From Candidatus Methanocomedens sp. (GTDB lineage: Archaea; Halobacteriota; Methanosarcinia; Methanosarcinales; Methanocomedenaceae): a stretch of 28,471 nt of DNA. This document shows, one piece after another, positions 2,944 to 26,060 of this stretch; the first letter of the stretch is position 1, and each line of letters starts with the position of its first letter. Below the pieces are notes generated by a model, which saw nothing but the letters and a program-made list of their open reading frames with translations, made no database searches and had not been told where the DNA came from. The stretch covers positions 1-28,471 of the forward strand of contig PYCK01000205.1 of NCBI GenBank assembly GCA_009649835.1. Reading direction: 5' to 3'. Made by a program: the position numbers and the translations under genes.

Positions 2944-3405
2944 TCATACGAACTCAATAGCCTCAGTTGGGCATGGGTCTATGCATGCCCTGCACAGTAT
3001 CCTGTCTTTACCAAAACGCCTGCATTCCTTCACATTGGCAGCTTTTACCTTTCCGTTTTCGACTCTGAAAATGACCTTTTCATTTGTCGGACCAAAACCC
3101 CTGCCTGAACCGTAAGGGTCATTGGCAACATTTACAGGGCAAGCGACTACACAGTTACCGCAGCCTGAGCAGAGTTCTTCATGTATAATGAGCCCGGTCT
3201 CCTCTGCACCTTCCATTGGCTTTAATATAATTTCCAGTTTCTGCCTTGAGTCGATGTATTTATCCTCTTCCATTAGCGGCGGGCATTCGGTGTACTGTTT
3301 GGTGCGTGAAAGTAATGCTACGGCAAATGCCATACAGGTAGATTCATTACATTTCTTGCAATTTGTTTTTGGCAGTAATTGATATATTTCCATTGCACTT
3401 GTCAT
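2944..3405 (-). CDS. fwdG: FwdG-like Fe-S protein: N-terminal CxxC-x4-C...CP Fe-S domain plus 2[4Fe-4S] ferredoxin
   Basis: IYQLLPKTNCKKCNESTCMAFA...ECPPL, then CSGCGNCVVACP and C...CRACIDPCP. Start moved to ATG 3405 (MTSAME), which follows GTGGT. Confidence 0.8.
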   Translation of the reverse strand: MTSAMEIYQLLPKTNCKKCNESTCMAFAVALLSRTKQYTECPPLMEEDKYIDSRQKLEIILKPMEGAEETGLIIHEELCSGCGNCVVACPVNVANDPYGSGRGFGPTNEKVIFRVENGKVKAANVKECRRFGKDRILCRACIDPCPTEAIEFV

Positions 3406-3518
3406 TTTGTAACCACGTAGTAGGGAAGTAACGAACCTTGCATAGCTGTCAATTGAATACAATTGTAGATAGTTCCGAATATAAATAAAAACTTCCTGTG
3501 GCCTGGAAAGCCGATGTT

Positions 3519-3549
3519 AAGAAAATGCTCACTTTGTTCGCATTTTCTT
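3519..3549. promoter_or_regulatory. Perfect 10-bp inverted repeat upstream of fwdGBD
   Basis: AAGAAAATGC (3519-3528), 11-nt spacer, GCATTTTCTT (3540-3549). A minus-strand TATA-like tract lies at about 3478-3490. Confidence 0.45.
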
Positions 3550-3611
3550 TAGCATACAGGAAAGTATATACTTTACCTATATGTTAAAAAAGCAGCAGAA
3601 GTGAAAAAAGA

Positions 3612-3655
3612 AAACAAGAAACTGCTCGCTTGCGCTCGCAGTTACTTATAGTACA
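3612..3655. repeat. Dispersed hairpin element, copy 1 (second copy at 25889-25930)
   Basis: AAACAAGAAA overlapping the hairpin AACTGC-TC-GC-TTGC-GC-TC-GCAGTT (3620-3643), followed by ACTT-AT-AGTACA. Confidence 0.65.
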
Positions 3656-3700
3656 CAATCTTATAGATCATACACAAAAAGAAAAAACAAACTGATGTTT

Positions 3701-4639
3701 TCACACCAGTCTATTAATCGGATGGTTTGGATCCATTATTTCCATGCCGAGATCTTTTGCAGTCTCTGCCAGCATGATATCTACTAAGGCAACTGCAGGG
3801 AATACTGACCTGACATTTTCAATAGGACCGTACAGCAGGCAGTCTGCGCCAACTACCTGGCATACAAGGTTGGTTCCAATATCCGCGGGCATGTAGGCTT
3901 CCTTATGTTCCTTTTTGAACTTCTTGAGCCAATCCCATGCAGATGCCATGTTATGGAAACCACCGCCAGTTGGAAGTCCCAGATGTCCCTTGACTGCCAT
4001 GATAGACCTGACAGTTGCACCTGCACCTGAACCAGGCGGCATAGCTGCCACATCGACAATTGGTCTGGTTATTCCACAATCCTTGGCAACATCAAGCATA
4101 CCTTTTGCCTGGCCAGTACCGCCAATCTCAAGGATGTCCATTTTGCCTTTCACTGAAGGGTCTGTAGCATTGAATGCCAGTACGATGGCTGCATCCAGAT
4201 CGCTTTCCGTAACTGCTGCAATCTCTTCTTCATTGACACTGGCATTGATAGAGTTGTGTATGGCCCTATCTGCCACGCCAATCTCAGTACAATACTTTGC
4301 TGCTGCTGCTCTCACATCACCAGCTGAAGAGTCTATCAGGAATGCAGTTTTATCATCGATATCGACAAACCAGTCTATAAATTTTATTATAGCTTCCGGT
4401 GTCTCACCCACGATCTGGTTAATATAGGGAACACCTGTTACGTCCCCCATCTCTTGTTGTGTGTGCCACAGATCATCTGCCTGGTCTTTGTTAAATATAC
4501 CTTTATCTTCGTCAGTCACAATTTTGTGCTTGCCGTAGAACATAGTACTGATCAGGACAGTGGGATACTGTCCTGGCTGCCCTCCCATCTTTACGCCGCC
4601 AAAATCGAAAACTTCCTGTTCTTTATCAAACCTAAACAT
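3701..4639 (-). CDS. mtrH: Tetrahydromethanopterin S-methyltransferase subunit H
   Basis: MFRFDKEQEVFDFGGVKMGGQPGQYPTVL, FLIDSS, ADCLLYGPIENV; last gene of the mtr operon; SD GAGGTGA. Confidence 0.97.
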   Translation of the reverse strand: MFRFDKEQEVFDFGGVKMGGQPGQYPTVLISTMFYGKHKIVTDEDKGIFNKDQADDLWHTQQEMGDVTGVPYINQIVGETPEAIIKFIDWFVDIDDKTAFLIDSSAGDVRAAAAKYCTEIGVADRAIHNSINASVNEEEIAAVTESDLDAAIVLAFNATDPSVKGKMDILEIGGTGQAKGMLDVAKDCGITRPIVDVAAMPPGSGAGATVRSIMAVKGHLGLPTGGGFHNMASAWDWLKKFKKEHKEAYMPADIGTNLVCQVVGADCLLYGPIENVRSVFPAVALVDIMLAETAKDLGMEIMDPNHPINRLV

Positions 4640-25525: not shown

Positions 25526-25758
25526 TGCAGTGAAAGACCATTTAGTCCTATAACTAATTTTCTACAACTGAAAAGAGGGGATGAATACCTGCAAGAAAAT
25601 TTGTATTGAGGGATAGTTAATGGACAGGACATAAAATCTGGTAGGTATATTGGATAACTATCTTGGGGTGATGCAAGTATTCACAGTTTATCATTATTAT
25701 TCATAGCATATATAATGTGTGGTCAATTCAGGAAAATGACGTGAAAATAAAGAAAAAA

Positions 25759-25833
25759 CGGGCGCAGAGGGATTTGAACCCTCGATCTTCAGCTTAGGAG
25801 GCTGCTGCCATATCCAGGCTTGGCCACGCGCCC
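25759..25833 (-). tRNA. tRNA-Arg (CCT), 75 nt, no intron
   Basis: GGGCGCG/TGCGCCC acceptor stem, GCCA/TGGC D-stem, CTCCTAA anticodon loop, GAGGG-TTCAAAT-CCCTC T-arm. Confidence 0.95.
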
Positions 25834-25888
25834 GCGATGATTGTGGACTTACTCTAAACTGGTTATTATGTATTAAATATTGCCCATG

Positions 25889-25930
25889 AAACAAGAAAAT
25901 CCTCCCTACGGTCGGATTAACTTGAGTACA
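25889..25930. repeat. Dispersed hairpin element, copy 2 (first copy at 3612-3655)
   Basis: AAACAAGAAA overlapping the hairpin AATCC-TC-CC-TAC-GG-TC-GGATT (25898-25918), followed by A-ACTT-G-AGTACA. Confidence 0.65.
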
Positions 25931-26060
25931 AAAAGTTATATTTTATGTACAATGAAAAAACCTTGCCGGGCAACCAGGATGGATTATGTGCGATATGTTT
26001 ATTATTGTTAAAGATATAAAAGCATGAAAATCATCATTGTATTCATAAAGGAGTAATCAA

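Follow-up and report, generated by a model that had tools for sequence, protein, structure and literature searches.

To our knowledge, insertion sequences of the IS91 family are regarded as bacterial. Their transposition leaves no target duplication, a target tetranucleotide (CTTG/GTTC) lies beside oriIS, terIS carries a subterminal palindrome beside the cleavage tetranucleotide, and a single-stranded circular intermediate has been described (PMC13181058). Miniature derivatives of one member, IS801, transpose in vivo (PMC3189936). In the stretch of 28,471 nucleotides analysed here (the window), which derives from an ANME-2a (Methanocomedens-like) MAG, two intergenic sites carry a short hairpin repeat, which we explain best, with a probability of about 70%, as copies of a ~61-nt non-autonomous element derived from, or parasitising, IS91-family (HUH Y2) insertion sequences of Methanosarcinales. 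The repeat is a mobile element of ~61 bases that occurs in tens and probably hundreds of copies in ANME-2a methane-oxidising archaea. Although the family is new and lineage-specific, the kind of mobile element that it represents is already known.

Anatomy of the two sites and of the repeat family

The window regions 3612-3655 and 25889-25930 have both flanks and a covarying hairpin in common. On the minus strand, the hairpin of copy 1 reads AACTGC-GA-GC-GCAA-GC-GA-GCAGTT and that of copy 2 AATCC-GA-CC-GTA-GG-GA-GGATT. The tandem G·A/G·A of both stems (two mismatches) is found only on this strand, here termed the sense strand. An earlier note, made from the letters of the window, had pointed to the likeness of the two loci and to their common hairpin architecture, and the sequence at both sites is as it stated; the 10-mer AAACAAGAAA is present at these two places and nowhere else in the window, whereas shuffled sequence gives an expectation of 0.07. 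A chance similarity in AT-rich intergenic DNA, in favour of which only the AT-rich context speaks, has a probability close to nil in view of this count and of covariance-model E-values reaching 1e-14 in many genomes. It was refuted by the matches of the model both in the MAG from which the window derives and across genomes.

The weaker similarity which the earlier note saw continuing beyond the hairpin (TTATA...GAAAAAAC) is real and corresponds to a second, 10-bp covarying hairpin and a T-run flank. The 44-nt site that it delimited is therefore genuine as a site but too short as an element: the latter measures ~61 nt (3615-3675 and 25892-25950), and each reported site represents its 3' half. 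Copy 1 is a type-A miniature element of 61 nt (3615..3675, minus strand), which extends from the left hairpin to a terminal TCTTG and scores 90.6 bits with covariance model R1. Its boundaries were drawn from tandem arrays with a 61-nt period, from filled versus empty sites and from the comparison of ends. The right, ter-like hairpin (3620..3643, minus strand) is followed by TCTTG at 3615-3619; in the L013 ortholog it still pairs through a compensatory GC to AU change, and the orthologs in L012, L014 and L016 show G-U wobbles on the minus strand. The left hairpin (3651..3675, minus strand; GTGTATGATC-TATAA-GATTGTGTAC) has a 10-bp stem which covaries between copies, is AT-rich and TATA-box-like, and is homologous to the left end of two IS91-like elements, L183 and L185. 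The T-run TTTTTTCTTTTT forms the 5' flank (3676..3687, minus strand). This insertion target is the ancestral T-tract behind mtrH and is continuous in the element-free relatives L017-L022. Copy 1 lies behind mtrH, the last gene of the mtr operon (3701..4639, minus strand; Pfam MtrH, 457.8 bits), which is 88-100% identical to mtrH from ANME-2 cluster, Methanosarcinales archaeon and Ca. Methanocomedens MAGs.

A type-B miniature element adjoins copy 1, directly downstream in the minus sense (3518..3584, minus strand), with ACATATAGGTAAAGTATATACTTTCC as its left end and TTTTCTTA as its terminal sequence. It consists of a left hairpin (3553-3583) and a right tandem-GA hairpin (3519-3549), is flanked by a T-run (3586-3591), and has a folding z-score of -5.8. 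The gene downstream of this type-A and type-B pair (2944-3462, minus strand) encodes a small Fe-S protein (Pfam FeS + Fer4) and is kept behind mtrH in relatives with and without elements. Copy 2, also of type A and matched by R1, is located at 25892..25950 (minus strand) between tRNA-Arg(CCT) (25758..25834, minus strand; ARAGORN and Rfam) and rps8e; its right hairpin, left hairpin and T-run flank occupy 25898-25918, 25926-25950 and 25955-25960, respectively.

The whole MAG was scanned with a descriptor of the hairpin (stem, GA, 2 bp, 3-4-nt loop, 2 bp, GA, stem). This led to the recovery of further copies with the same flanks and also revealed the second family, type B, in which the same hairpin is joined to another upstream half. 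Read on the minus strand, the order of parts is T-run flank, 10-bp left hairpin, TCAAGT, tandem-GA hairpin and TTCTTG. Type A comprises a T-run, 0-5 variable bases, the 10-bp hairpin GTATATAATC-TATAA-GATTATGTAC, T(C)CAAGT, the tandem-GA hairpin and TTCTTG or TTGTTC; in type B, ACGTATAGGAAAGTATATACTTTCCTGCAGGCTT takes the place of the type-A left part and the right tandem-GA hairpin is retained. Nearly all copies have TT(T)CTTG or TTTTGTTC next to the right hairpin, on its 3' side. The left and right ends are unrelated in sequence and do not form terminal inverted repeats.

Both hairpins covary, the right one as the earlier note had proposed from two stems that differ and still pair. Among eight copies from the window's MAG, 3/8 pairs of the right hairpin vary on both sides, while the GA/GA positions are invariant; the closing C-G pairs, both GA dinucleotides and the G...A ends of the loop are unvarying in these eight and kept in most of the 91 copies of G032. 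The 91 copies were aligned to the covariance model: 98% of the hairpin cells are paired, 6/8 pairs vary on both sides, and none of 500 shuffles reached the observed values. Variants of the right stem include AATCC/GGATT, AATGC/GCATT and ACTGC/GCAGT, with CC/GG, GC/GC or AC/GT as inner pairs. In the left stem G-U outnumbers A-C (32 vs 12); no G-U excess is seen in the right stem (14 vs 14). Calculated DNA folding energies hardly distinguish one strand from the other, as G·A pairs receive no credit from the nearest-neighbour parameters. An outer CAAG/CTTG stem was considered and rejected: since GTTC is the terminal sequence of many copies and no more than 62% of the cells pair, these flanks are a sequence motif and not a stem.

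Distribution, insertion sites and mobility

Model R1, built on type A, finds 28 copies in the window's MAG (G000, 85% complete), where nhmmer retrieves ~21 A-like and 12 near-identical B copies. R1 matches are present in 19/19 sampled genomes of the same family and in 4/6 of a second family, compared with 1/34, 0/27, 0/33 and 0/1 in other families of the order. The richest genome, G032, has 91 matches in the 353 kb sampled. Copies are almost always intergenic. Viral contigs were searched for the right-end pattern and gave no exact match. The outcome that the earlier note held against its own proposal was an absence of further copies, with flanks resembling shuffled AT-rich DNA; the copies in the MAG and the excess of the 10-mer are the opposite of this, and its dispersed, MITE- or REP-like family under structural constraint is borne out by the 28 copies, the occurrence in every family genome sampled and the covarying hairpins. 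G000 also contains ~20 copies of an unrelated repeat, CCTGTAAATCCTGTCAAAA-GATTTGATTGAAACTAAGAAAATT-ACCTATATCGATATCGAAATGCGTT, which is often close to contig ends (C6, C19, C82, C91, C94, C116, C130, C189, C190, C206, C211, C212 and C216), is not found in the window and is probably another mobile-element end.

The family is mobile, and the presence/absence polymorphism between relatives that the earlier note had wished to see is found at three orthologous loci. The locus 3' of mtrH is filled in five close relatives, L012-L016, by A and B or by A and a truncated A; in six slightly more distant relatives, L017-L022, it is empty and holds only the T-tract. In L013, a 5'-truncated A-like copy with a disrupted hairpin (L013:2437-2700) is located where the window has its type-B copy. 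The spacer between tRNA-Arg and rps8e carries the element in genus g1 only, where four genomes are filled; in genera g2 and g3 it is ~60 nt shorter and without element sequence, the spacer having diverged so that the exact edges are blurred. At both loci orthologous copies decay, with GA changing to AA and loss of the 3' motif. The third locus, C65, is empty in four genomes of the same genus with 93-96% flank identity, where CTTTTTTTA runs directly into ATTTTAAG. Precisely at this junction a type-A insert of 62 nt is found in the window's MAG and a type-B insert in G036, both with no duplication. These are sister genomes (L159 of G000 for type A, L160 of G036 for type B) and the insertion point is identical, which reflects a hot spot for insertion or, alternatively, an exchange of the left half.

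An IS200 tnpA pseudogene of G032 is split after GGTTTTTC by a clean 60-nt insertion of the element, again with no duplication; at this site and at C65 at most 1-2 bases are ambiguous. Inserted copies always lie directly 3' of a T-run, and the target reads as a T-run and one base (TTTA, TTTC, TTGA, TTCA); CTTG is seen at this place in tandem arrays and for two full-length elements. The arrays are head-to-tail with a 61-nt period, the ...TTTTCTTG end of one unit being the T-rich flank of the next. Two mosaic arrays of G032 (L139:18530-18700 and L139:19190-19350) are inverted to each other around a small ORF; they combine a left hairpin, an inverted tandem-GA hairpin, the modules TAATCCTCCATTCCTCTGGAATGTCGG and ACGAAGATTCTACGAATCTTC, and a terminal tandem-GA hairpin.

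RNA-level readings of the pair behind mtrH

The repeat could alternatively act in RNA, for instance as the gene of a small structured RNA, as an L7Ae site of K-loop-like form or as a terminator/promoter cassette, copy 1 then being the mtr terminator; we consider this very unlikely. It has the look of a terminator, a hairpin followed by TTTTCTTGTTTT, and the left hairpin contains a TATA-like box ~23 nt upstream of the right one. The AT-rich left hairpins, including those of the two elements behind mtrH (3518-3584 and 3615-3675), resemble archaeal BRE/TATA boxes. Many copies are also found in RNA-library contigs, and in G000 the next downstream ORF is co-directional in 21/26 cases. However, there is no Rfam match to the element (Rfam detects only tRNAs in the window), orthologous loci lack the element in relatives whose genes there are unchanged, and orthologous copies decay as described above. 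The orientation relative to neighbouring genes is moreover unbiased in G032 (36/82), so that the co-directionality in G000 is no more than a weak hint of a retention bias.

The role of copy 1 as terminator of the mtr operon, which the earlier note had suggested, is not supported. Element-free relatives already have a T-run directly after mtrH and the element sits inside this run; since the T-tract predates the insertion, the hairpin need not be invoked as a terminator. Metatranscriptome contigs include the region as well as many B copies, and one contig spans the region from mtrH to the next gene; this and the lack of orientation bias in G032 count against the suggested role. RNA contigs break at the repeats, and the depth peaks at the B hairpin are due to other copies, so that transcript ends are unreadable there. 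The tandem G·A pairs also brought a K-turn/K-loop (L7Ae) or small RNA into consideration; this was rejected as the primary reading, as there is no 3-nt bulge and no Rfam match, and copies are gained, lost and decaying.

A further proposal combines both levels. ANME-2a would have seen a bloom of the smallest known IS91-type miniatures, in which the GC-rich ter hairpin was replaced by a tandem-G·A, GNA-loop mini-hairpin, and some copies, including the pair behind mtrH, would since have been recruited by highly expressed genes, as modules for termination, mRNA stabilisation or promotion of transcription. This broader scenario is speculative and we regard it as unlikely.

IS91-like ends and comparison with known systems

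To return to the IS91-type reading, genes with the Y2 domain (PF04986) occur in 7/19 genomes of the family and in 27/121 genomes of the order, and carry Zn_Tnp_IS91+Y2_Tnp. An intact example is the archaeal Y2 transposase of 472 aa encoded at L178:1012-2430. The boundaries of these IS91-like elements were set where conservation starts or stops between copies in different genomes. Six of them, preceded by a T-run and any one base or by CTTG, begin with ACGTATAGGAAAGTATAAAC, which is the type-B left end; 17-19 bases are identical, as is also the case for the type-B copy of the window. Two other elements begin with (G)TATATAAAGTATA... and match type-A left ends, for which 16/19 bases are identical: L183 begins with GTATATAAAGTATAAATTTC and the type-A copy L114 with GTACATAAAGTATAACTTT. 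At the right, the IS91-like elements terminate in ...AATTTGC(A)CCC-GAA/GATA/GCA-GGG(T)GCTTTCTTG, or in shorter form GC(A)CCC-GAA/GATA-GGG(T)GC-TTTCTTG. Here, the layout, the terminal TTTCTTG and the G...A form of the loop (GNA or GNNA) are common to full-length and miniature elements, while the stem differs. These end matches, together with the features described for IS91 in the literature, are the reason why types A and B are read as IS91-type derivatives reduced to their ends. A different subgroup is represented by L173 (G011:C41:6273-9971), with three tandem Y2_Tnp genes and upstream ORF ends resembling tyrosine recombinase C-termini.

The ends also bear on a competing origin, namely a palindrome-associated element of IS200/IS605 type or a repeat of REP-like type, with a Y1 HUH enzyme (TnpA or RAYT) as its mobiliser. 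Such an enzyme would equally account for insertion 3' of a fixed short target with no duplication and for two hairpins on one strand with strand-specific structure, and intact Y1_Tnp genes exist in G000, G001, G007 and G027. Nevertheless, the end hairpins of IS200 in these genomes, such as GGCCCTGGACTTAAGTCCGGGG, are unrelated to the repeat, no intact Y1 gene is flanked by the element, only broken Y1 genes are found in G032, the genome with most copies, and the element ends match IS91-like ends instead. IS200 Y1 was rejected as the mobiliser on the first three of these points, and the Y1 origin as a whole appears quite unlikely. One IS200-type Y1 transposase gene of the MAG (G000:C171:3401-3844; L092:1426-1869) is intact and has an end hairpin of its own, unrelated to the repeat, and no PF07282 (TnpB) match was found in it. 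Of the link drawn in the earlier note, attribution to an HUH family of single-strand DNA transposases stands; its ends place the element with the Y2 enzymes of IS91 and not with IS200/IS605, TnpA(Y1) or RAYT.

Several observations weigh against a tidy IS91 picture. A PF04986 gene was sought and not found in four copy-rich genomes, G000 (85% complete), G001 (100%), G007 (97%) and G027 (99%). A search for a full-length element with a tandem-GA right hairpin found none, all full-length elements having GC-rich hairpins; G032 has a degenerate tandem-GA-like hairpin downstream of a truncated Y2 gene. The T-run target, the lack of a G-U excess in the right stem and the orientation of the transposase gene, which in the full-length relatives points away from the end beside the target and towards the hairpin, count in the same direction.

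Under the IS91-type reading, with the minus strand as the presumed active strand, the left end of the element is homologous to the transposon end which abuts the target, and a short linker follows. The right end, a subterminal hairpin and then TTT(T)CTTG or TTTTGTTC, reproduces the layout of the terIS end of the IS91 family. A Y2 transposase supplied in trans may cut one strand at two places, behind the terminal tetranucleotide and at the left boundary. This strand would then be re-inserted directly 3' of a T-run and one base, and the target would not be duplicated. Its tandem G·A pairs, together with the GNA/GNNA loop, may confer unusual single-strand stability on the short AT-rich right hairpin, which could then act as a compact ter-like signal. 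Such stability would account for the conservation of pairing and of the GA positions in subfamilies that differ in the letters of the stem.

These results account for a conspicuous repeat class in uncultured methane-oxidising archaea and provide exact rules (ends, target, no duplication) for annotating and masking it, as well as presence/absence markers at the strain level. They point to active IS91-type single-strand transposition in Methanosarcinales, of which a literature search found no description. The copies represent a natural series of hairpin variants for probing what the Y2 transposase reads at the ter end. They also call for caution, as hairpins behind operons such as mtr are not to be taken as terminators that evolved in place.

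Compared with classical MITEs, the element is likewise miniature, non-coding, intergenic and present in many copies, but the terminal inverted repeats and the target duplication of MITEs are both absent. Elements derived from IS200/IS605 and REP/BIME repeats are similar in being short, intergenic and hairpin-forming, in their processing by HUH enzymes in single-stranded form and in their capacity to build arrays or mosaics like those of G032; they differ in that their ends match Y1 elements or bear a GTAG-type REP head, whereas the ends described here match Y2 elements. Non-autonomous Helitrons of eukaryotes are very short or gene-less rolling-circle HUH derivatives that lack inverted repeats, cause no duplication and reach a high copy number; their 3' subterminal hairpin lies within a few bases of the end. 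All of these traits are reminiscent of the present element, although Helitrons use a RepHel transposase and an AT dinucleotide target and belong to another host domain.

The closest likeness is to the IS91 family (IS91, IS801, IS1294), in which terminal inverted repeats and target duplication are lacking, a short specific target adjoins the element, and at one end CTTG or GTTC follows a subterminal palindrome. Its members are active as single strands and in a strand-specific manner, as would be the case for the element, short derivatives with nothing but end sequences can be moved in trans, and full-length archaeal relatives carry Zn_Tnp_IS91+Y2_Tnp. The differences lie in the target, a T-run and one base rather than CTTG/GTTC alone, in the right hairpin with tandem G·A pairs in place of a GC-rich stem, in the archaeal host and in the high copy number. 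Relative to the IS91 layout as read from the literature, the gene of the archaeal full-length relatives runs the opposite way with respect to the ends. Finally, while the IS801 miniatures are one-ended fragments of 229-679 nt, the element described here is reduced to ~61 nt and consists of both ends only.
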